A DNA stretch of 64,000 bases from Nitrospinota bacterium (GTDB lineage: Bacteria; Nitrospinota; Nitrospinia; UBA9942), in contig JACQBS010000051.1 of NCBI GenBank assembly GCA_016194325.1, positions 7,855-71,854 of the forward strand, given 5' to 3'. The notes under the pieces are model-generated. The model searched no databases. It was not told the origin of the DNA and was given only the letters and a program-made list of their open reading frames with translations. This document shows positions 1,675-44,460 of this stretch, in pieces; the first letter of the stretch is position 1; the number at the start of each line of letters is the position of its first letter. A program made the position numbers and the translations under genes.

Positions 1675-3879
1675 ATGTTTAGAAAATACCCGAATAAAAA
1701 CCTGAATTTAACTACAGAAGCACAGAGGACACGGAGACACAGAGATTTTAAAAGCGGTTTAAACAGTTTAAACGGTTTAATCCGGTTTTTTCCTCAGTGC
1801 CTCAGTGTCTCTGTGGCTTATAACTTCCTGCTCAAAATAAAGCTGATATTACTTATTTTTTTAGTGGCAGTTGATTTTTTTCTTTTAATCCTTATCTATA
1901 CGCCGATTGTAGATGCAACAGGGGGGGCATTTCCATATACGAAACATGGAGGTGTTGCAGGGAATGGAGTGGATCGCTCTACAACAGGGAACTGGCCCCC
2001 TGCATCTGGTGCAGGCACATATCAGAAAGGTGAATGCACTCACTGTCATGAACCACATGCAAGCTTCGGTGGAGACGAACCCTATCCCAACTATACCAAT
2101 CACCCCTCCTTTATGACGCAGGAAGAAGCTCAGGGGCCAGACCCATATCTTCTATTTGCCGATGATAACGCAAATCTATGCTGGACATGCCATGAGACTT
2201 TTCAGTTTACAGGCAAACCATTAGGATGGGGGGCATATGGATTTTATCAGGGGAGGAGTGTCTATCTGTCATCAACACATGGTGACCCATTGAAAAATGC
2301 AAATATGTTATGGCCGGGTATTAGCGGTGCAACGGTTCATCCAAGAAAAGCCCGCCCATCTACACTCAATGGTGTTTCTCAAAAAGGTATATGTCTGAAC
2401 TGTCATACTCCTCATGGTATTCGCGGTAGTGAAGGGAATGCCTATGATACAGATGCAGTCCCTGAGTCAAAACAGCTTACAACGAGCAACCCTTCTGTTA
2501 CTGCGGATTATCTTATTCCCCGTCAGCTTAATGCATGGGAAGAGAAGCTATGTGAAACCTGTCATGACGCAAGTGGGCCTGCAATTAACAACATTCAGAG
2601 TGAAATTGATAAAAGAAGTCTTGGGGGAAGCGGCCACCCTGTGGATGATACAAATCTATCAGGGCGACATGTTGTCAATGAAACTTTTCCTATAACTTCA
2701 AAGCATGTGGAATGCTATGATTGTCATAACCCTCATGTCATTAAATCAAGCAGCAGGGTTGAAGGATTAAGATATGTAGATATAAGTGGTGTTCCAAAGG
2801 ATCCAGCAGCAGGTGATTCACAGCCTTATGTCTATCAAATATGTTTTAAATGCCATGGCGATGGATATGCTAATTTTATTCCTGCGAAAACCCATCCCGG
2901 TCCCGGGCTTAATCCAAATCATTCAAATCATCCACTGCGAACCAGTACTGGAAATCCTGCCTCAGGTAATACTAATGGGAGCAATAAAAGGCTTGAATTT
3001 AACCCTTCAAGCACAAGCTCTCAATCAGATTGCGGATCATACCAGGCATCTGATTGCAGGCCCAGCCCAAGTCAGAATACTGCCTATCATCCAGTAGCCT
3101 CTACTGGTAGGAATACATCGGCTGCTATACAGAGGCAATTACTGGCTGGTCTATCTCCTGACAAGACTATTATGTGCACTGATTGCCATAATTCCGAGGC
3201 AACAGGAAGCATACAGGGACCTGTAACAGAATCCAACTTAAGGGCTACAGACCTTCCATCGGGATATGCCGGAGTAAGCCCTATAGGTCCTCATGGCTCA
3301 CAACCACCTTCTGTAGGCGGTTACCAGACATATCGGATTTTAAGGGCCAATTACAATACGACATTAGGGGGGGCAACTGAGCCATTTACTTCTTACAATC
3401 GTGATAATTTTGCCCTCTGTTTTCTCTGCCATAATGAAGAGGCATTTACAAAACAGTGTGGTGACCCTTATTTTGAGTGTGGTAGCTGGACAGATGGGCC
3501 CAAGACAAACTTCTATAGCACATTATATGATATAAATCTCCATGCAACCCATATAGCCAAAAAACCTGTTTTTGCAACTACTGGAACTTCTACAACCTGT
3601 GCAAACTGTCATTATAATGTTCATTCCAATATAGAGGCTGCCAATACTATGTATAACGACAGCAATGATCCGAACTGGAAGAGACCTCTGGATGGCGGAA
3701 CTCGTCTTATTAATTTTTCTCCAATTGTTGGAGCCAGCTCATGGTGGACCTATAGCAGACCATTCTGGGGGTGCGTTAAAACGACTGGCATATGGAGGAA
3801 GGGGTGTGATTTTAACTGTCATGGCTTCGATATGGAATTATGGTATTCACCCCCTAATATTGCAGACAGCTGTTACTAA
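1675..3879 (+). CDS. Multihaem c-type cytochrome (9 CXXCH + 1 CX3CH), membrane-anchored or secreted
   Basis: Haem motifs: CTHCH, CWTCH, CLNCH, CETCH, CYDCH, CFKCH, CTDCH, CFLCH, CANCH plus CDFNCH, many in a CXXCHxPH context. Hydrophobic segment LILLIFLVAVDFFLLILIY. The C-terminal ~390 aa are paralogous to the C-terminus of 11392..16635. Start uncertain: the ORF opens at TTG 1606 and ATG 1675 was chosen. The N-terminus is read through hairpin element 1715..1816. Confidence 0.8.
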   Translation: MFRKYPNKNLNLTTEAQRTRRHRDFKSGLNSLNGLIRFFPQCLSVSVAYNFLLKIKLILLIFLVAVDFFLLILIYTPIVDATGGAFPYTKHGGVAGNGVDRSTTGNWPPASGAGTYQKGECTHCHEPHASFGGDEPYPNYTNHPSFMTQEEAQGPDPYLLFADDNANLCWTCHETFQFTGKPLGWGAYGFYQGRSVYLSSTHGDPLKNANMLWPGISGATVHPRKARPSTLNGVSQKGICLNCHTPHGIRGSEGNAYDTDAVPESKQLTTSNPSVTADYLIPRQLNAWEEKLCETCHDASGPAINNIQSEIDKRSLGGSGHPVDDTNLSGRHVVNETFPITSKHVECYDCHNPHVIKSSSRVEGLRYVDISGVPKDPAAGDSQPYVYQICFKCHGDGYANFIPAKTHPGPGLNPNHSNHPLRTSTGNPASGNTNGSNKRLEFNPSSTSSQSDCGSYQASDCRPSPSQNTAYHPVASTGRNTSAAIQRQLLAGLSPDKTIMCTDCHNSEATGSIQGPVTESNLRATDLPSGYAGVSPIGPHGSQPPSVGGYQTYRILRANYNTTLGGATEPFTSYNRDNFALCFLCHNEEAFTKQCGDPYFECGSWTDGPKTNFYSTLYDINLHATHIAKKPVFATTGTSTTCANCHYNVHSNIEAANTMYNDSNDPNWKRPLDGGTRLINFSPIVGASSWWTYSRPFWGCVKTTGIWRKGCDFNCHGFDMELWYSPPNIADSCY
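1715..1816 (+). repeat. Tandem-unit hairpin element, CACAGAG/CTCTGTG family with CGGTTTAAA-repeat loop (copy 1)
   Basis: Left arm cagaagcacagaggacacggagacacagag; right arm cctcagtgcctcagtgtctctgtgg, about 21/29 complementary. Loop aaaagcggtttaaacagtttaaacggtttaatccggtt. A near-identical element lies at 17537..17643. Confidence 0.85.
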
Positions 3880-3893
3880 TGGAAGGAAGAAAA

Positions 3894-3979
3894 AGTGCCA
3901 GTGAACAGTGTCAGTGTCAGTATAGGATAGAAGTTGAGAAGTTAAGAGGTTTTTCTCATCTTCCCATCTTCTCAACTTC
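3894..3979 (+). repeat. Heptamer block (GTGYCAG) followed by hairpin GAAGTTGAGAAG/CTTCTCAACTTC; possible terminator or RNA-processing hairpin
   Basis: agtgccagtgaacagtgtcagtgtcag occupies 3894..3920. A perfect 12-bp stem pairs gaagttgagaag (3931..3942) with cttctcaacttc (3968..3979) and is followed by cattttt. It sits between stop 3879 and start 4003. Confidence 0.6.
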
Positions 3980-4002
3980 CATTTTTAAGGGAGGTATTTA
4001 AA

Positions 4003-4290
4003 ATGAAACGAATGATTTTAATATTATGTTTCTGTATCCTGTTTTTAATTCTCCATATCCCGCTAATCCCGTTTTACAGCATAACGGGACAGGTCTATTC
4101 TGAGATAAAAAAACCTGCATTGGGGACAGAGATAAAACCTGATTGCAAGGAATGTCACAGCAGGAATGCGACGATAAGGGGGAGTGGAAAACCTGCTATA
4201 CCTGGCCAGCCTATGAAGGGGGATGGTAAACCTACCCCACCTCCAGACCACATCAGGAAAGATAAGAGGAAAAATAAAGGGCAGCAGTAA
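4003..4290 (+). CDS. Small secreted mono-haem (CXXCH) protein, hypothetical
   Basis: GGGAGG RBS 8 nt upstream of the ATG. Hydrophobic N-terminus MILILCFCILFLILHIPLI. Single CKECH motif. Lys/Pro-rich tail. Confidence 0.5.
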   Translation: MKRMILILCFCILFLILHIPLIPFYSITGQVYSEIKKPALGTEIKPDCKECHSRNATIRGSGKPAIPGQPMKGDGKPTPPPDHIRKDKRKNKGQQ

Positions 4291-4310
4291 ATAGGAAATT
4301 ATAAAAACTT

Positions 4311-4451
4311 GCCACAGAGTCACGGAGATTTCTTTAATTTATAGTACAGGAATTTAAATGTTGAGATTGCTTCACCTTCGGTTCGCAATGACAAACAAAA
4401 TTAATAGCAATCTAATTTATTTATTTCTCTGTGCCTCTGTGTCTCTGTGGC
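4311..4451 (+). repeat. Tandem-unit hairpin (CACAGAG/CTCTGTG family) spanning the start codon of the next gene
   Basis: The left arm gccacagagtcacggagat (4311..4329) is complementary in about 13/15 terminal positions to the right arm tctctgtgcctctgtgtctctgtggc (4426..4451). ATG 4388 lies in the loop. The right arm encodes LCASVSLWL of the signal peptide. Confidence 0.8.
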
Positions 4452-5122
4452 TTATTTTATTCTCAAGCATTGGTTGTAAAACAGCTACCCAAAAGGATGA
4501 AGTAAAAACAGATGTAGAAGTAATAGATAAAGAAGGGTTTGGTTCTGTCCCTTTTTTAGAAACTGGTAAACTTGCCTTCACAACAGAGGAGGCAAAGGCA
4601 AAGATGGAGGTGAGGTTGAAGAGAGAAAAAGAGGAACTTGAAAGAAAAAAAGGTGAATTTCAAGCCCAGGCAACAACCCGATGGACAACTGATTTCTGGA
4701 TACCCCCTCCAACGAATCCTCCGCTGGTATCCGCCCTTAGGGAATTTCCAAAAGATTCATTCGGTTATCCTGATTGGAGTATGGCTGTCAAAAGGGGTAT
4801 TATAAATCCGTTAGATTCAATTAAAGGGGAAAGAGTTAAAAAGGAGCAGGAAGAATTTAATCAAGATATAATATTTCAGATAAACGATAGGATGATGGCA
4901 AATGTCCGTTTCCCTCACAGTGTACATAATTACTGGCTTTCATGTAAGGTCTGTCATCCTGCTATCTTTATAGCAAAAAGAGGCGGCAATGATTTTGGAA
5001 TGACAGATATCTGGAATGGTAAATTTTGCGGGCGGTGTCATGGTAAGGTTTCGTATGCCCCTAAGGGATTTGAAAACTGCATCCGCTGTCACAGTGTGAG
5101 GAGAGAGAAGGTTGGTTTTTAG
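4388..5122 (+). CDS. Tri-haem c7-type cytochrome domain lipoprotein
   Basis: C-terminal VRFPHSVHNYWLSCKVCHPAIF...MTDIWNGKFCGRCHGKV...FENCIRCHS matches the c(7)-type tri-haem domain pattern (FPH..H....C..CH...C..CH...C..CH). The N-terminus has lipobox-like LFSSIGC. The ORF opens at 4358; ATG 4388 is preferred. Confidence 0.75.
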   Translation: MTNKINSNLIYLFLCASVSLWLILFSSIGCKTATQKDEVKTDVEVIDKEGFGSVPFLETGKLAFTTEEAKAKMEVRLKREKEELERKKGEFQAQATTRWTTDFWIPPPTNPPLVSALREFPKDSFGYPDWSMAVKRGIINPLDSIKGERVKKEQEEFNQDIIFQINDRMMANVRFPHSVHNYWLSCKVCHPAIFIAKRGGNDFGMTDIWNGKFCGRCHGKVSYAPKGFENCIRCHSVRREKVGF

Positions 5123-5151
5123 TTTGTTCATGTATAGGAAATTATAAAATT

Positions 5152-5228
5152 AACCACAGGTGAACACAGGTAAACGCTGAAAATAAAAAAAATAAAATAA
5201 CTGTGTTAATCTGTGTTTATCTGTGGTT
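5152..5228 (+). repeat. Decamer-unit hairpin element (AACCACAG-GTGAACACAG / CTGTGTTTAT-CTGTGGTT), empty loop
   Basis: Left arm aaccacaggtgaacacaggtaaac; A-rich loop; right arm ctgtgttaatctgtgtttatctgtggtt. Preceded by the TAGGAAATTATAAAA box (5135..5150). Same family as 10908/11307 and 54092..54172. Confidence 0.85.
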
Positions 5229-5249
5229 TCATTAAGTTTTTGTTCTTTT

Positions 5250-6752
5250 ATGAGAAATTTTTTTTTAAGATTAGTTCATGATAGTTGTAAGTTGTTGGTT
5301 GTCAGTTGTTGGTTATTTCTCTGTGCCTCTGTGTCTCTGTGTCTATTAGTTTTTTGTTCAATCCCTGCCTATGCGGAAAAGGGCGATGCGGTGGCAGGAA
5401 AAGAGGTTTTTGAGAAAAGATGCAGGCAGTGCCATGGTGATACAGGTGAGGGGAATGGCCGCGTAGCGGACAAGGTATATCCTCCGCCGAGAAATTTCAC
5501 ATGGGGTCTTTTCAAATACAAGACATCCCCTATGGACCAACCTCCAAGAGATGAGGATTTGTTAAGAACGATAAATGATGGATTTGGCGAGGCATCTATG
5601 CCTCCGTGGAGGGACATAATGACTGAGAAGGAAAAGCGGGATGTTATAGCCTATGAAAAGAATTTTTCGGATATTTTTGAGACAGAGAAACCGCCTGAAG
5701 AGATTGATTATGGCGAGGAGATTCTTTACTCAGAACAGAGCGCCATTAAAGGTAAGGAGCTTTTTAAAAAGGCAGGGTGCCCTGAGTGTCATGGTGAAAA
5801 TGGAAAAGGAGATGGTATAAAAAAACTGAAGGATGTATGGGGCACAAGGGAATGGCCCAGAAACCTGACAAAGCCATGGACATACAATGGCGGCAATAAA
5901 CCAAAGAATATATTTGCAAGGATAACGGTAGGCATACCGGGAACACAAATGCCATCATTTGCAGATAAAAATAGTACAAAATATTTTACTGAAGAGGAAC
6001 GTTGGCATATAGTAAATTATGTGAGGTCTCTTGCAGATGAGACGAAGAGGGTTAAGAAAGAAGAAGAGGATAAGCCTTTAAAGGCGAAATATATAAATGG
6101 GGAAATTCCTATGGATGTCCATGCTGATGAATGGAAAGGAGCACCATTTAAGGCAATTAAATTATTCCCGCAGGACCAAACAAAGGAGAAGTTTTTTAAA
6201 CCCACTAATGATGGGATTAAATGGAGGGTCCTCTTTAATGATAAGGAGATCGCATTTTTGTTAGAGTGGGATGATAGGACAAAGAGTGTCCCCGGAGATG
6301 CAGAGGCAGAGAAGCTGAGCGAGGGGGAAGTGTTTGAGGATGCAGTTGCAATTCAGTTTCCCACGGCAATATTGCCCAAGATACCAATAAAAGAACAATT
6401 ACCGTCAATTGAACATGGGGATATGGAGTTTGGTGTAAATATCTGGTATTGGAGTAGTGGAACTACCTTGAGCCCCCAGATGACAAAGGTTAAATATTCG
6501 TATGGTATTAAATCAGAAAGGGTTGAGCCAGAAATTAAAGCAGGTTTAAGCGGGAAAGGTGAATATGCAGGTGGTATATGGAAGGTGATATTAAAAAGAG
6601 GGCTCAAGACTTCAAATCCGAAGGATGACCTCCAGTTTGAAACAGATAAACTTATACCTATAGCATTTGGAAACTGGGATGGCTCAAATGGAGGGAAGGG
6701 AAATAAACATACTGCAACCCCGTGGGATTGGTTAATATTGGAAAAAGGGTAA
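5250..6752 (+). CDS. Di-haem cytochrome c fused to an EB_dh-like (ethylbenzene dehydrogenase / DMSO-reductase type II haem-b subunit-like) domain
   Basis: Two class-I cytochrome c motifs: GKEVFEKRCRQCHGDTGEGNG and GKELFKKAGCPECHGENGKGDG. The C-terminal half (WKGAP...AFLLEWDD...DAVAIQFP...NIWYWSS...WKVILKR...IAFGNWDGSNG) resembles the EB_dh haem-binding domain. The signal peptide ends AYA-EK. The ORF opens at GTG 5223 inside the hairpin; ATG 5250 is preferred. Confidence 0.75.
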   Translation: MRNFFLRLVHDSCKLLVVSCWLFLCASVSLCLLVFCSIPAYAEKGDAVAGKEVFEKRCRQCHGDTGEGNGRVADKVYPPPRNFTWGLFKYKTSPMDQPPRDEDLLRTINDGFGEASMPPWRDIMTEKEKRDVIAYEKNFSDIFETEKPPEEIDYGEEILYSEQSAIKGKELFKKAGCPECHGENGKGDGIKKLKDVWGTREWPRNLTKPWTYNGGNKPKNIFARITVGIPGTQMPSFADKNSTKYFTEEERWHIVNYVRSLADETKRVKKEEEDKPLKAKYINGEIPMDVHADEWKGAPFKAIKLFPQDQTKEKFFKPTNDGIKWRVLFNDKEIAFLLEWDDRTKSVPGDAEAEKLSEGEVFEDAVAIQFPTAILPKIPIKEQLPSIEHGDMEFGVNIWYWSSGTTLSPQMTKVKYSYGIKSERVEPEIKAGLSGKGEYAGGIWKVILKRGLKTSNPKDDLQFETDKLIPIAFGNWDGSNGGKGNKHTATPWDWLILEKG

Positions 6753-7130: not shown

Positions 7131-10100
7131 ATGGACAACGACATGAGTAACCACAAATACACAAGCAAAAAATTAAAGCGAAATAGGGAAACTCTCTATC
7201 TTCCTCCTTTCCCTATTTTTCTTTTTGTGTTTTTGTGGTTAATTATTTTTTCTAATATAGCATTTGCAGAGATTGCTCCAACCACTGTTTATCTATCCGA
7301 TATTAAGAGTGGTCTCTCTGTCCCTGTCCACATAGCTACAGATAAATGGGCGAATATCTATGTAACCGATCCCGGCAGGCAGCAGGTTCATAAATTTAAT
7401 GCCATCGGTGACCTCAAGTTAACGATTACCGGTATTACCGCTCCACTTGGAGTAGCAGTAGATAGTCAGGGGAATATATATATAGGTGATGACAGTAATA
7501 ACAATGTCTCGGTTTTTGATTCTGCCGGTAAGTTTCTTCGCAAATTAGGCTCAGGCAATGATGAGTTTATCATGCCCAATGATATTGTCATAGAGCCATC
7601 TTCAGGACGAATATATGTCACTGATTCAAAGGCAAACATAGTCAAGGTCTACAATCCTGATGGTTCTTTATCCTTTAACATCAGCGGTATTCTTTTTCCA
7701 ACAGGTATTCATATAGATTCTAAGAAGGGGGAGCTTCTTATAGGTGACCTTATAAACTCTCAGGTAAAGGTCTTTGACCTCTCCGGAAATTTTCTAAGAA
7801 GTTTTGGCTCAAGTGGTGTGGGTGCTGGTCTTATTAGCAGTCTGCAGGGGCTGACTGTGGATAAGAGTGGAAGGATATATGTTGTTGATGCCCATAAGGG
7901 ATGGGTTCAGGTCTTTGATTCAGCAGGGAATTACCTTTCCTTTATTGGAAGTGGTAATCTATATACACCGCTGGATGTGATGATAGACCCATACAATAGA
8001 CTTATTGTCTCATCATCTTCTGATGGGAAGCTATCCATTTACGGTATTGATGGTGGTAACCTCCCATCTAATTGGAATGAAAATTACCTGCCTGATACTG
8101 ATGGAGATGGGATGCCTGATGCATGGGAGGAGGCAAACGGACTCAATCCAAATCTTAATGATGCCTCCCTTGACCCTGATAATGACGGCCTTACAAATCT
8201 CAATGAGTATCTATCCGGCTCAGACCCCCACAATCCTGATACTGATGGAGATGGTTTAAAAGACGGTGTTGACCCAAGCCCGGGAATAGCTACTAATAAT
8301 AAACCATCAGCAAATGCCGGTCCTGATATGACATATGACCCGGGTATTATTACTCTTAATGGAAACGGCAGCAGTGACCCAAATTCCCTGTCCCTTAAGT
8401 ATACATGGACAGAGAGCGGGACGAATCCTGCAAATGTAACTCTTTCAGATAATGGGACAGTAACAGCAATTAAACCAACATTTATTGCTACAAAAGCTGG
8501 AGTTTATAAATTTACTCTCAAGGTTGCGAATAACTATTTTGAAAGTAATCCCGATGATGTTCTGATTACAATCAGGAATTTTACTCCAACAGCCTATGCA
8601 GGGTTGGACCAGACTGTCAGTGGTAATACACAGGTCAATATTAGTGGAGCAGGCAGTTTAGATGCAAATGGAGATGCACTAACATATAAGTGGACACAGG
8701 TTTCAGGCACTCAGGTGAGCCTTATTGGAGGAAGCACGAGAGACGCAAATTTTACCCCACAGAGCTCAGGGGTATATATCTTCAGGCTTATCGTGAGTGA
8801 TGGTGTCAATACCAGTGCACCTGATGAGATAAACATAACAGTCAACAGTTCCAATACTGTCCCTGTGGCAGATGCAGGTGTTGACCAGGTCGTTTATTTG
8901 CCTGCTACAGTAACCTTAAACGGTAATAGAAGCAGTGATGGTGATGGAGACCCATTGACATATAGTTGGAATCTCTTATCCGGGCCAAAGGCTGTTACAT
9001 TATCCAATGCCGCTAATAAAAACCCCACATGGACAACTGATACCCCGGGTATCTATACCTTTGCCCTGACTGTCTCCGATGGAAAGGATAATAGCATCTC
9101 TGATAGTGTAAATATTACTGTAAACGGCGCAAATCAGGTTCCTGTTGCAAATGCAGGCACGGATCAGAATGTAATACTCTATTCAACTGTTACCTTAGGG
9201 GGAGGGATGAGCTACGACACGGATAATTCCCCCTCTCCTCTTACATATAAATGGACACAGGTATTTGGAACAACTGTCTCTCTTAACAATTCCACCAGCA
9301 TGACCCCGACATTTGTTCCAATCCACGAAGATGTGCTTAGATTTCAGCTCACCGTTAGTGATGGGCTGAATACCAGTCTATACGATGAGGTTGAGATAAA
9401 GGTAGCAGGCAGTAACATACCCCCTGTGGCTAATGCAGGGAATGACCAAACGGGTATAGTAGGCATATTTATCAAACTTAACGGAACAGGGAGTATGGAT
9501 AAGGATGGGGATACGCTGACCTATCAGTGGACACAGGTGAGAGGTGCATCAGTAATACTCTCCAACATATATTCAAGAGAGCCTACCTTCACACCTTCAC
9601 AACCGGGTATCTATGAATTTATGCTATTAGTGAAAGACAATATTACTTCAAGCTCCGATACAGTTATGATAACAGTTAATAGTCCGCAGAACTCCCTGCC
9701 GCTTGCCAATGCAGGAATAGACAGGATTGTGGAGGTTGATTCTACTGTCCTGCTTAATGGTGGAGGGAGTGATGCAGATGGAGACCCGCTAACCTACAGA
9801 TGGCAATTTGTAAGCGGGCCTGCCTCTATTATTTTATCCAGCACTTCAGCAGCAAATCCAGCTTTTGTGCCAAAGATTATAGGAAGCTACATATTCAGGC
9901 TTACTGTAAATGATACCAAAGGGGATAGCAGTCCTGATGATGTTCAGATTTCAGTGGCTCCTAAAGGTGCCATTGTATTCAATATTAAAAATGGGAAAGA
10001 CAATCTCCTTTCAGCAACCGATTTGACGATATATCCATGGGTTGACCTCTTGATTCCTAACGGGTCTGTAAATGGAAACATGGATATAGCAATTGCAGAA

Positions 10101-10907: not shown

Positions 10908-11335
10908 AACCACAGATAAACACAGATGAACACAGAAAAAGAATTCCTTTACAAAGAATTAACCGGGGAAATAATAGAGGCATCATATAATGTTCATAAT
11001 AGTCTGGGTTGTGGGTTACTTGAAAAGGTATATGAGAATTCACTTATATGGGAGATAGAATTAATGGGGAGAAAAGTTTCTTCACAAAGAGAGTTCAAAG
11101 TAATTTATCGTAAGAAAGAGGTTGGAATATATTATGCAGATTTAGTTGTAGAGGATAAGGTGATAGTTGAAGTGAAATCGGTAGAAAGGATAGATGATAT
11201 TCATCGTGCACAATTGTTAAACTATCTGAGAATATCTGGCTTAAGGGTTGGGTTGATTATAAACTTTGCCAGATCTAAATTAGAATATGAGAGATTGGTA
11301 GTTTAACCTGTGTTTATCTGTGTTCATCTGTGGTT
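10908..11335 (+). repeat. Inverted decamer-repeat arms bracketing the GxxExxY gene (gene-in-loop hairpin cassette)
   Basis: The left arm aaccacagataaacacagatgaacacaga (10908..10936) contains the ATG. The right arm cctgtgtttatctgtgttcatctgtggtt (11307..11335) starts 1 nt after the stop. The arms are complementary, with two decamer units swapped in order. Confidence 0.85.
10926..11306 (+). CDS. GxxExxY protein (PD-(D/E)XK nuclease superfamily)
   Basis: GLLEKVY is the eponymous G-x-x-E-x-x-Y motif. Length 126 aa, with the typical ...YYADLVVEDKVIVEVKS...HRAQLLNYL... core. Confidence 0.85.
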   Translation: MNTEKEFLYKELTGEIIEASYNVHNSLGCGLLEKVYENSLIWEIELMGRKVSSQREFKVIYRKKEVGIYYADLVVEDKVIVEVKSVERIDDIHRAQLLNYLRISGLRVGLIINFARSKLEYERLVV

Positions 11336-16639: not shown

Positions 16640-16761
16640 AGCAATGAGCAATGAGTGCTAAGCGATGAGTAAAAACTTATTGCTAATCACACATTATGAA
16701 ATTATGATTCGCAATTTATTATTTACATTGCTCATTGCTCATTGCTTATCACTCATTGCTT
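16640..16761 (+). repeat. Octamer-unit hairpin (GCAATGAG/CTCATTGC) with the gene start codon in its loop
   Basis: The left arm agcaatgagcaatgagtgctaagcgatgagt pairs with the 3' part of the right arm (ctcattgcttatcactcattgct) in about 21/23 positions. The loop contains gaaattATGATTCGCAATTT (ATG 16704). The right arm encodes LLIAHCLSLIAYA. Confidence 0.8.
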
Positions 16762-42135: not shown

Positions 42136-44403
42136 ATGAACAGAAAAAAAATAGTGTCAGTGAACAGTGTCAGTGTCAGTAAAAAAAACAGTGTTAGCAA
42201 AAGGATACTAATACTGATACTAATACTGACACTAACACTGACACTTGAAGATGCCTTTGCGGACTCAAAGGGGAGACCCGACCACATGTCAAAGGAGATA
42301 ATAAAGACTAAAGAAGTAGTCCCTGTTCCTCCCGATATTCAGGTGCCTTACTCGGTCAAGAGGATTAGTGACGGCAGTTCCATTGATTACCATCCGGAGT
42401 TTAGCCATGATGGAAAACAGATTGTATTTATTAGAAAAATAGATAATGATGAAAATATGAAAAAGGGGGAATTCTGGCACAAGACACCTTATTCCCTGAA
42501 TCTATGGCTCATGGATTCAGATGGCAATAACAGAAGACAGTTAACATCAGGGGATGTGATGGACTTTGCTCCAAGGTTTACACCTGATGGAAAAAGGGTC
42601 ATTTTTGTCTCCAATCGCAGGGATGGCAGATGGGATATATGGTCAATAGATATTGATGGTTCAAACCTTAACAGAATTACAGAGACAGAAGGGAATACAG
42701 GGCTATGGGAAAGGTCACACTATCCTTTCCCTACGCCAGATGGTAAGGAGATGATTTTCGTAATCTATAAAAAATCCCACGGAAGTGTATGGCTTATGGA
42801 TATGAAAAGCAGAAATATAAGAAGAATAACTTCAGGGGGATTTGGAGATGACTTTCCGATGATGTCCCCTGATGGTAAAGAGATTGTCTTCAAAAGCACG
42901 AGACAGGGAAATGGAGATGTATGGTCAATAGATAGAACAGGAAAAAATTACAAAAGATTGACCTATGAGGATTACCCGGAATTTTACCCTGCATGGAGTC
43001 CGGATGGGACTAAAATATCCTATGTCACCAACAAAGGGGGTATCTTTGATATATGGATAATGAATAGGGATGGTAAACACAAAAAGAAGCTGACAAAATT
43101 CCTCTCGCAGGGGGCATGGGGAAAAAGGTTTGATTATAACGACCTTGTAGAGACCGGATATTATCATGTCTCATGGCATCCGGATGGAACAAAGCTTGCC
43201 CTGACCATCTGGGATCCTGATAAAAAAGAAAGTTATTTGACAACACTCGACTTTGGAAAGGATATTGGCAGGGTAATGGATAGCCTGCCTGATGAAAAGG
43301 AGACCCTTCCTGATTACACCCTTATTGGAGAGAAAGATATTACCGGCGGTGGAAGCTGGGATGATTTTGGACCATCTTTCAGCCCCGATGGAAAAACAAT
43401 AGCCTTTGCTTCTAATAGAAAGGGGAACTGGGATATCTGGAGTATCAGCGCAGAGGGTGAGGGATTGAAACAGATGACGGAGGACACTGGTAGTGAGCTT
43501 GCCCCCGTATTCAGTCCTGATGGTAAAGAGATAGCATTTTTAAAAGAAATTGGACAGGATATACAGGATGGACAGGAAAAAAATATAAATCCAGTAAATC
43601 CTGTTAATCCTGTCAAAAAATACTATTCATTATGGCTCATGAATAGTGATGGGAGTGGTGCAAGGCAGATTACTGAGGGTATTAAGGCTATATCTTATCC
43701 TGCATGGAATCCAGATAGTAAAGAGATTGCCTTTGTAGCAAAAGGAGATAAAGGTCCTGAGATACAATTAATCCCCCTTAATAAAGGGGGGCAGGAGGTT
43801 GTTACTGTGAGCCGTGTTATTTCTATATGGGACACAGAGAAGCCTAATCCTTCTATGTTTCCTTTTGCAAAGGATACAAAGGATGAGGAGTTTACTCCTG
43901 AGGAAATGGCAAAGATGAAAAAACTATTCCCGAATGCAAAAGTCGGGATGGGTGGATTGACCCCCTTTACAAAGGGTGAAACCATAGATGTTCCTTATCC
44001 ATTGAAAGAGTTTCTCTACCGTGTAGATTATAATGCCGCAGGTGACAAAATCATATTTGAGTCTAATAAAAGCGGGAATATAGATATATGGTCGGTAAAA
44101 AAAGATGGGACAGAGATGACTCGTATTACAAAAGAAAGTGGACCGCATCTAAATCCTGTCTTTAGCCCTGATAATAAAAGAATCGCCTATGCCCGCAGAA
44201 AATTGGAGTTAAGCTCATATAATGAAGTAAATTATAACATCTGGGTTGCCGATGCGCATACCGGTGAAGAAATGCCTATTAACGGTGAGGAGCAGACAGA
44301 CTGGAATCCTGCATGGAGTCCGGATGGAAAAAAAATCGCCTATGTTACTAATCGTTCAGGGGAATTTAAGCATTATAATATATGGATGCTGTATTTAAAA
44401 TAG
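42136..44403 (+). CDS. Secreted TolB-like PD40 beta-propeller repeat protein
   Basis: The leader is MNRKKIVSVNSVSVSKKNSVSKRILILILILTLTLTLEDAFA, followed by PD40 blades throughout. The tail is NRSGEFKHYNIWMLYLK. Confidence 0.85.
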   Translation: MNRKKIVSVNSVSVSKKNSVSKRILILILILTLTLTLEDAFADSKGRPDHMSKEIIKTKEVVPVPPDIQVPYSVKRISDGSSIDYHPEFSHDGKQIVFIRKIDNDENMKKGEFWHKTPYSLNLWLMDSDGNNRRQLTSGDVMDFAPRFTPDGKRVIFVSNRRDGRWDIWSIDIDGSNLNRITETEGNTGLWERSHYPFPTPDGKEMIFVIYKKSHGSVWLMDMKSRNIRRITSGGFGDDFPMMSPDGKEIVFKSTRQGNGDVWSIDRTGKNYKRLTYEDYPEFYPAWSPDGTKISYVTNKGGIFDIWIMNRDGKHKKKLTKFLSQGAWGKRFDYNDLVETGYYHVSWHPDGTKLALTIWDPDKKESYLTTLDFGKDIGRVMDSLPDEKETLPDYTLIGEKDITGGGSWDDFGPSFSPDGKTIAFASNRKGNWDIWSISAEGEGLKQMTEDTGSELAPVFSPDGKEIAFLKEIGQDIQDGQEKNINPVNPVNPVKKYYSLWLMNSDGSGARQITEGIKAISYPAWNPDSKEIAFVAKGDKGPEIQLIPLNKGGQEVVTVSRVISIWDTEKPNPSMFPFAKDTKDEEFTPEEMAKMKKLFPNAKVGMGGLTPFTKGETIDVPYPLKEFLYRVDYNAAGDKIIFESNKSGNIDIWSVKKDGTEMTRITKESGPHLNPVFSPDNKRIAYARRKLELSSYNEVNYNIWVADAHTGEEMPINGEEQTDWNPAWSPDGKKIAYVTNRSGEFKHYNIWMLYLK
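43552..43615 (+). repeat. Complete hairpin element inserted in frame in TolB-like paralogue 3 (GGACAGGAT / AATCCTGT units)
   Basis: Sequence: ggacaggatatacaggatggacagga-aaaaaatat-aaatccagtaaatcctgttaatcctgtc. The arms are reverse-complementary. It encodes GQDIQDGQEKNINPVNPVNPV at the same loop that carries other repeats in the three paralogues. Confidence 0.9.
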
Positions 44404-44460
44404 TGAAAGTGTAAGTGAAAGTGTAAGTGAAAAGAGTTAACTTACACTTACACTTGCACT
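44402..44460 (+). repeat. Intergenic hexamer/heptamer hairpin (AGTGTAAGTGAAAG / CTTACACTTACA) between TolB-like genes 3 and 4
   Basis: Sequence: agtgaaagtgtaagtgaaagtgtaagtgaaaag-agttaa-cttacacttacacttgcact. It overlaps stop codon 44401..44403 and ends 13 nt before ATG 44474. Confidence 0.85.

Follow-up and report, generated by a model that had tools for sequence, protein, structure and literature searches.

Cyanobacterial STRR sequences are tandem heptamer repeats located at gene borders, and the CTCTT coding repeats of the Neisseria opa genes form long, length-variable tracts in the leader peptide that act as phase switches. REP/BIME elements are palindromes carrying GTAG and CGTC tags (PMC3733652). 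The Correia/NEMIS elements of Neisseria are co-transcribed hairpin repeats at gene borders that can contain promoter-like motifs, and their cleavage by RNase III can change the expression of the adjacent gene (PMC2229807). RU-2/YPAL and RU-1 are small palindromic repeats dispersed in enterobacterial genomes, mostly intergenic and sometimes fused to genes in frame (Delihas 2007, PMC2759123, PMC2229807), and the predicted signal peptide of one Yersinia protein consists in part of RU-2 (Delihas, PMC2759123, PMC2229807). The in-frame palindromic repeats already known are RPE, RU-1/2/3 and the 107-bp Correia form (PMC2229807). As relayed in that source, the Rickettsia palindromic elements (RPE) are in-frame repeats tolerated inside proteins (Ogata et al. 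2000, via PMC2229807).

Here we analyze a stretch of 64,000 nucleotides (the window) of a Nitrospinota genome in which genes for a tri-haem and a di-haem cytochrome lie side by side. A first-pass annotation of the window had drawn attention to a repeat arm shared by the signal peptides of the two genes and to a start codon placed in a hairpin loop. We find that the leader of the tri-haem gene (4291-4477) is very probably a mosaic of two dispersed palindromic repeat families, and judging from the sequence such selfish repeats appear to serve as working secretion signals here. Coordinates are those of the window unless a contig is named, and the cytochrome genes, the repeat features of their leaders, the element between them and the 16640-16761 hairpin are all on the forward (+) strand.

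Organization of the cytochrome leaders

The tri-haem gene (4358-5122) encodes a c7-type lipoprotein cytochrome with three CxxCH motifs (Pfam Cytochrome_C7, E = 9e-12). Its leader opens with a 16-nt left motif, ATAGGAAATTATAAAA (4291-4306), directly after the TAA stop codon of a small haem gene (4003-4290). This is followed by the 5′ arm of a hairpin, GCCACAGAGTCACGGAG (4311-4327), which is purine-rich and untranslated and contains two CACAGAGN-type units compared with three in the family consensus. BLAST against the genome showed that the loop contains a second palindromic repeat in truncated form (approximately 4335-4420). The nested copy contributes AGGA (4348-4351), an ATG at 4358 with the AGGA 6 nt upstream, and another ATG at 4388. 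Both ATGs lie between the arms, as expected from the earlier proposal of a start codon in the loop; the one at 4358 had gone unlisted in that annotation, and the alternative start at 4388 has no Shine-Dalgarno sequence.

The 3′ arm (4425-4450) is translated as FLCASVSLW, and the segment pairing with the 5′ arm spans 4435-4451. Compared with canonical copies, the sequence that follows, CTTATTTTATTCTCA (4451-4465, translated LILFS), may be a decayed, degenerate right motif. The canonical right motif, CTTATTAGGTTTTTGTTC, would be translated LIRFLF in the frame used, and both translated copies are without the arginine codon. The lipobox SIGC (4466-4477), with a GC that is conserved in all orthologues, closes the signal peptide. 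By heuristic inspection, the complete signal peptide (MLRLLHLRFAMTNKINSNLIYLFLCASVSLWLILFSSIGC, with K as the next residue) consists of a charged n-region, an uncharged hydrophobic core and the lipobox. A scan of 3850-5450 found no terminator-like sites and no excess of promoter-like sites (4 vs 4.7 in shuffles). A further intergenic hairpin with GAGAAGTT-type arms (3880-4000) sits between a multi-haem gene and the small haem gene.

The di-haem gene (5250-6752) encodes a cytochrome c with two Pfam Cytochrom_C domains, an EB_dh domain and two CxxCH motifs. Orthologue alignment and heuristic inspection give a signal peptide of 42 residues that ends in ...LLVFCSIPAYA before E. Two solo arms are translated within it. 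The arm AGTTGTAAGTTGTTGGTTGTCAGTTGTTGGTT (5283-5314, translated SCKLLVVSCW) belongs to another repeat family, a heptamer family that forms a hairpin on contig C80. The CTCTGTG arm (5317-5342) is a 3′ arm without a pairing partner that continues into a right motif, CTATTAGTTTTTTGTTC (5343-5359, translated LLVFCS), the two together being translated as FLCASVSLCLLVFCS. A complete, untranslated element occupies the space between the cytochrome genes (5123-5245) and ends 4 nt before ATG 5250. It consists of an exact copy of the left motif that precedes the 4311 arm (5134-5149), two arms (5152-5175 and 5205-5228) and a right motif (5231-5245), and is bounded by TTTGTTC direct repeats (5123-5129 and 5239-5245).

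A third gene, located 6.7 kb upstream of the tri-haem gene and outside the window (contig C69, position 5451), also contains FLCASVSLW. Its leader translates the whole CACAGAG/CTCTGTG hairpin, with the purine arm encoding the charged n-region and the other arm FLCASVSLW. The product of this gene is a 707-residue protein with the leader MINKDMIQPHISHKGTETRSKEIRKRFLLFLCASVSLWLFLLIPAWLYA followed by QE (contig C69, 5355-5620, about 2.3 kb before the window start), and AATCCCTGC after the arm is common to the leaders of this gene and the di-haem gene.

The start-in-loop arrangement is repeated elsewhere in the window, at the second site for which it had been claimed: the arms of a GCAATGA-type heptamer hairpin (16640-16761; −49 kcal/mol, z = −5.9) flank ATG 16704, which lies in the loop. 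The 3′ arm of this hairpin is translated as LLIAHCLSLIAYA and forms the core of a signal peptide, and an FGE-sulfatase domain begins at residue 22.

Repeat families in the genome

The 26-mer TTCTCTGTGCCTCTGTGTCTCTGTGG at 4425-4450 recurs at 5317-5342 with one mismatch (0 matches expected from shuffles). The near-identity of the two copies that the first-pass annotation had reported is thus upheld, with the first arm at 4425-4450 instead of 4426-4451 and the second at 5317-5342. The genome-wide search for the 26-mer that it had suggested (3.1 Mb, 39% G+C, 175 contigs) identified 88 copies at ≤4 mismatches, 63 of them intergenic. The 3′ arm of the tri-haem leader is the exact 26-nt consensus of this family, which consists of three tandem 8-nt units, a unit length that is not a multiple of three; among the matches listed, all match the full three-unit 26-mer. 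Being the consensus of a large and mostly intergenic family, the arm does not support the special link between the two cytochromes that its sharing had implied.

Repeats of this general form are abundant. The genome contains 4877 short tandem arrays, compared with 1566 in a Markov simulation, and 500 hairpins (inverted repeats with arms of at least 16 nt), compared with 67 in a simulated genome; hairpins with periodic arms of tandem 6-12-mers number 234 vs 2. The first (5′) arm is A-rich or purine-rich in 79-82% of the inverted repeats, and as the structures are palindromic this order of arms holds on both strands. When translated, first arms are hydrophilic (mean hydropathy −1.06; R, T, K, S, E, Q) and second arms hydrophobic (+0.84; L, S, V, F, I, C), each averaged over three frames. 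Hairpin families show no significant local clustering across the genome (21 sharing pairs vs 16.7 expected, p = 0.17), and we discarded the idea that adjacent genes share an arm because arm families spread locally.

The outer element of the tri-haem leader is a composite of the 16-nt left motif, a hairpin with tandem-repeat arms, purine-rich and then pyrimidine-rich, and a T-rich right motif. The left motif occurs in 56 exact copies in the genome and in 192 copies at ≤2 mismatches. For the 56 exact copies listed, the hairpin that starts 0-10 nt downstream comes from one of many arm families; a strictly called hairpin lies within 60 nt after 72 of the 192 copies. The right motif, AATCAGGTTTTTGTTC, is found within 320 nt of the left motif in 107/192 cases (15 expected), about 85-130 nt later. 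The element at 4291-4465 is ~175 nt long, and elements generally measure about 130-170 nt. The two outermost motifs, ATAGGAAATTATAAAA and AATCAGGTTTTTGTTC, are not complementary to one another; it is the arms that form the inverted repeat. Only 2 convergent pairs occur among the 192 left-motif copies, and we rejected a terminal inverted repeat as the identity of this motif. At ≤1 mismatch, each of 8 genomes from one bacterial family (f1) has 11-110 copies of it, compared with 0-3 in each of 33 further genomes from the class; it is abundant in this family only.

Genes flanking the left motif are nearly balanced in orientation (103 vs 74 on one side, 95 vs 87 on the other), which speaks against a general role as promoter or terminator for a fixed side. 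Thirty-six copies immediately precede real-looking gene starts. The reverse complement of the motif, TTTTATAATTTCCTAT, contains a perfect TATAAT (e.g. in 4291-4306 and 5134-5149), and in 36 of the 192 copies an ATG 0-11 nt past the reversed motif (mostly AC-ATG) opens a long, real-looking gene, for example for a response regulator, an epimerase or a shikimate-kinase-like protein. The products often begin with MNK, encoded by the reversed right motif. In sequence terms the reversed left motif looks like a repeat-borne promoter and start module, which would be leaderless because a Shine-Dalgarno sequence would not fit in. The consensus right motif in reverse complement contains ACAAAAACC (e.g. 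5236-5245, 5349-5359), and CACAG is present in the arms; the two recall the V(D)J recombination-signal nonamer and heptamer in a different order and spacing; this resemblance is most likely a coincidence.

By BLAST, the genome contains about 25 partial and 5 long copies of the second palindromic repeat, TTAATTTAATGTACAGGAATTTCAATGTTGAGATTGCTTCGCC...GAAGCAATCTAATTTAT in its full form. Every long copy carries AGGA-N6/7-ATG. This repeat occurs in all four genera of family f1, and both repeat families were found in 8/8 sampled genomes of this uncultured groundwater family. The nesting recurs on contig C140 (~44120-44420), where a CACGAAT-type hairpin immediately before a lipoprotein gene (…LLLAIVLIFSGC, then KKEEE) has the second repeat in its loop.

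Hairpin loops also house nuclease genes: 4 of the 5 genes for PD-(D/E)XK nucleases (PF13366) are located in loops of tandem-repeat hairpins (10908-11335 in the window, and contigs C20, C24 and C116). The arms of these four hairpins are of different families (CACAGAT, CAGGAT, CACGAAT and CACAAGAT), and CACAGAG arms are not among them. The hairpin-borne nucleases are candidates for an autonomous form of the empty hairpins. No transposase was found linked to the element, and the nuclease-loop hairpins belong to sister arm families.

Repeat DNA in signal peptides

Both arm copies are read at the same frame offset, giving FLCASVSLWL in the 4358/4388 ORF and FLCASVSLCL in the 5250 ORF. The shared peptide FLCASVSL(W/C)L noted previously in the two signal peptides is therefore real, and in both the arm forms the hydrophobic core. 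The c-type cytochromes require export, and neither gene has an in-frame start downstream of the arm that would leave an export signal; judged from the sequence, the arm must be translated. In alignments of orthologues, a conserved lipobox (GC) or AYA cleavage site before E comes directly after the repeat-derived stretch.

The enrichment of repeat DNA in signal peptides is large. With a home-made heuristic applied to crude gene calls, which makes the genome-wide fractions approximate, 117 of 656 signal-peptide-like N-termini (~18%) contain an array or arm of at least 15 nt, and arrays and arms cover 8.7% of such N-termini vs 0.9% of gene interiors. Coverage measured by 14-mer multiplicity, approximate for the same reason, amounts to 7.1% for the cores of signal peptides, compared with 1.8% for interiors and 0.8% for internal membrane-like segments; intergenic DNA reaches 22.7%.

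Variation among related genomes

The mature part of the tri-haem protein is conserved among orthologues from the G-C of the lipobox onward, and the N-terminus varies by lineage. Orthologues with 78-81% identity (G003/P0004) have a TTTCACC array at the N-terminus; those with 68-74% identity (G006, P0006, P0008) translate a GCAAGAA/TTCTTGC hairpin in its entirety; one with 73% identity (P0007) has other inserts; and the remainder, with 40-73% identity (P0005, P0009-P0013, G011, G015), have plain lipoprotein signal peptides. Orthologues of the di-haem protein follow the same pattern, with a variable N-terminus before a conserved (A/V)YA site and E-Q-G-D. The two G006 orthologues have a repeat family in common, which we considered as a special link and set aside as uninformative; it has dozens of copies in G006.

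Two close relatives reveal turnover of individual elements. Genome G002 is 99.4-99.9% identical to the source genome (G000) across both cytochrome genes and has a different hairpin between them as well as a different sequence at 7143-7241. The latter interval is the signal-peptide region of an NHL/PKD protein, replaced in G002 and poorly alignable in L041; the surrounding identity is 94-99% (G002) and 87% (L041). L041, a contig from a groundwater metagenome, carries the same operon, with a tri-haem protein 82% identical to that of G000; the public record with the same protein is Deltaproteobacteria bacterium RIFCSPLOWO2_01_FULL_42_9. Where G000 has a 116-nt element flanked by TTTGTTC, L041 has an empty site, TAG-TTTGTTC-TTTT-ATG. 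The copy at 5123-5245 thus shows both a target-site duplication and, with the single TTTGTTC of L041, an empty site in a relative, and the tri-/di-haem junction exists in three alleles, one of them empty. L041 is also longer by a 114-nt unit inserted at the left motif; as the 16-nt motif is duplicated by this insertion, a homology-driven insertion is equally possible. The intergenic hairpin of G000 at 3880-4000 is replaced in L041 by an unrelated ATTGAAA-type hairpin, with the GGGAGG ribosome-binding site and start kept.

Conservation and predicted fold of the tri-haem leader

The tri-haem leader (4291-4477) differs from that of L041 at 3 of 187 positions (98.4% identity, binomial 4e-10), compared with an identity of 84.4% in the small haem gene and 85.4% in the mature tri-haem part. 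Identity is 98-100% throughout 4290-4489, 70-78% just to the left and 84% beyond 4540. Not one of the 40 signal-peptide codons has a synonymous change (0/26.5 sites vs 0.30 in the mature part), and the 67 untranslated bases of the leader contain one difference (p = 6e-6). The effect is weaker in the di-haem signal peptide, with a synonymous difference of 0.075 vs 0.27.

Positions 4311-4327 pair with 4435-4451 through 15 Watson-Crick pairs and one G-U, with one T-T mismatch. The complementary arm described earlier upstream of the ribosome-binding site and ATG is consequently a true inverted repeat, pairing at 16/17 positions. The fold of 4300-4465 has a predicted energy of −51 kcal/mol (z = −6.7), which 0/200 shuffles equalled. 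The minimum-energy structure pairs AGGA 4348-4351 and AUG 4358 with 4418-4429, a stretch that reaches into the first unit of the 3′ arm, and leaves AUG 4388 unpaired. All three differences from L041 fall at unpaired positions of the predicted fold, a placement with a chance of 0.07. The hairpin itself is inherited from the repeat element; from the modelled pairing we infer that it may also throttle tri-haem translation.

Since tolerated selfish DNA is not expected to produce such conservation of a leader, the conserved island appears to point to a nucleotide-level function of the leader or to the whole cassette having been exchanged recently. We rejected conversion towards the family consensus as the cause of the island because G000 and L041 share copy-specific variants of the nested repeat.

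Discussion

The tri-haem leader is best explained as a mosaic of the two dispersed repeat families. The truncated repeat nested in the loop would supply the AGGA ribosome-binding site and both candidate ATGs. Translation would start in the loop and run through the pyrimidine-rich 3′ arm, whose hydrophobic or small residues alone (FLCASVSLW) would make up the core of the lipoprotein signal peptide, and the stretch that follows this arm may be what is left of a right motif. The di-haem gene would employ a solo copy of the same arm, with a right motif, in the same frame, and the third gene, 6.7 kb upstream of the tri-haem gene, would translate an entire hairpin of the CACAGAG/CTCTGTG family.

Shared ancestry would make the repeat family irrelevant: one cytochrome signal peptide would have been duplicated or gene-converted from the other. 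The two genes are adjacent, the third gene with FLCASVSLW is nearby, and the 74-kb contig holds 6 of the 88 arm copies where ~2 are expected, all of which would fit such a history. The census of copies largely refutes it, with 63 of 88 sites intergenic, the sequences flanking the arm in the two leaders are unrelated, and hairpin families are not locally clustered; we regard this history as very improbable. Still harder to credit is a phase-variable simple-sequence repeat in the manner of the Neisseria opa CTCTT tracts, in which slippage of the 8-nt units would switch the genes on and off. The arm is indeed a tandem repeat in a signal-peptide coding region, with a unit length that is not a multiple of three. 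Against slippage stand the small number of units, the equal number (three) in G000, G002 and L041 despite 15% divergence of the flanks, and the full three-unit match of the family copies listed.

The conserved island calls for its own account, and both of the explanations that we weighed for it can stand beside the repeat mosaic. Recent recombination of the whole cassette, from the left motif to ~4500, between the populations of the G000 and L041 lineages without selection on the RNA concerns the island alone, and we give it close to an even chance. It would account for uniformly high identity that drops sharply on both sides, with a left edge at the very 16-nt motif where L041 has an extra unit; elsewhere in the operon, hairpins are swapped or missing when these genomes are compared, and the shared variants of the nested repeat indicate common descent of this copy. 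Exchange across 15% divergence is nevertheless expected to be rare, and no donor or intermediate was seen, the leader being present in two lineages only. The other explanation is a dedicated, riboswitch-like translational hairpin that hides the ribosome-binding site and AUG of the tri-haem gene, such that expression would need melting or processing of the stem. The stable fold, the predicted pairing of AGGA and AUG 4358, the near-absence of change even in the untranslated left motif, 5′ arm and loop next to flanks differing by ~15%, the lack of synonymous change and the location of the three differences at unpaired positions are all compatible with it. Yet stability is built into every palindromic element, as the ~500 hairpins vs 67 simulated attest, and the unpaired loop is as strongly conserved as the paired positions, a pattern that structure by itself does not account for. 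Among orthologues, those at 72-78% identity contain different repeats: in G006 the start precedes both arms, and in G003 complementary arms are missing. More distant ones have plain signal peptides; in the di-haem region synonymous change is lowered as well, without any partner arm. We consider a dedicated hairpin rather unlikely. The uniform conservation of the unpaired loop and an edge placed exactly at the insertion-prone left motif make us lean towards exchange, and the predicted pairing of the start region keeps regulation alive as a reading of the island.

A broader and more tentative idea, which we think may well be wrong, is that the hairpin repeats are portable leader cassettes, usable in either orientation, that are inserted, swapped and passed between related strains at short junction motifs. 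An element landing in frame at the front of a gene would offer a charged n-region followed by a hydrophobic core on either strand, because on both strands the purine arm of every element comes before its pyrimidine arm. Nested repeats would add a ribosome-binding site and a start codon, and the 16-nt left motif and TTTGTTC would be the junction motifs. On this view the tri-haem leader, with its 98.4% identity, would be either a cassette exchanged not long ago or one that has gained a function at the nucleic-acid level. If true, this would amount to a natural shuffling system for the signal peptides and translation starts of the secreted proteome.

The tri-haem locus is a concrete example, open to checking, of a conserved respiratory protein whose start codons and export signal come from selfish palindromic DNA; the previous evidence for this was one hypothetical Yersinia protein. 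It suggests a route by which new secretion signals can arise and be replaced quickly, and its conserved island poses the question of a hairpin regulating translation versus leader cassettes exchanged between strains. For annotation, the repeats easily mislead the calling of start codons in such genomes, and signal-peptide predictions may be affected.

With a length of ~175 nt, 88 arm copies and 192 left-motif copies, the element falls within the size and copy range of bacterial MITEs in general (~100-200 bp, many copies). REP and STRR resemble it as abundant short extragenic palindromes and as tandem heptamers at gene borders, respectively, whereas the present elements, at about 130-170 nt, exceed them in length and join tandem-repeat arms to conserved flank motifs. 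Identity with REP was rejected: read from the sequence, the arms begin with GCCACAGAG, end with CTCTGTGGC and have no GTAG or CGTC tag. A search of published work on STRR and heptamer hairpins found nothing related. Correia/NEMIS elements are likewise hairpin-forming repeats at gene borders, but they have no sequence relation to those described here, in which the TA target duplication and IHF site are not seen. As in the opa CTCTT tracts, pyrimidine-rich tandem repeats encode the hydrophobic core of a signal peptide; the opa tracts are long and variable, in contrast to the three fixed units of a dispersed hairpin element in this genome.

The closest parallels are palindromic repeats that enter reading frames. 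Like RPE, the present element is a palindromic repeat in frame within protein-coding genes. RPE, as far as described in the source cited above, lie in surface loops of mature proteins and form Rickettsia-specific families, whereas the signal peptide and translation start region are preferred here; the host lineage is unrelated to Rickettsia, and the left motif is confined to one bacterial family. RU-2 and RU-1 share with it the form of small dispersed palindromes, mostly intergenic and sometimes fused in frame, but differ from its arms of tandem 6-10-mers in fixed purine-then-pyrimidine order and from its asymmetric conserved flank motifs. The RU-2 signal peptide, which arises in the same manner, is a single anecdotal locus in a hypothetical protein, compared with a conserved respiratory cytochrome here and, by our heuristic, ~18% of signal-peptide-like N-termini. 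Unlike in that case, a nested repeat in the tri-haem leader supplies the start codons.
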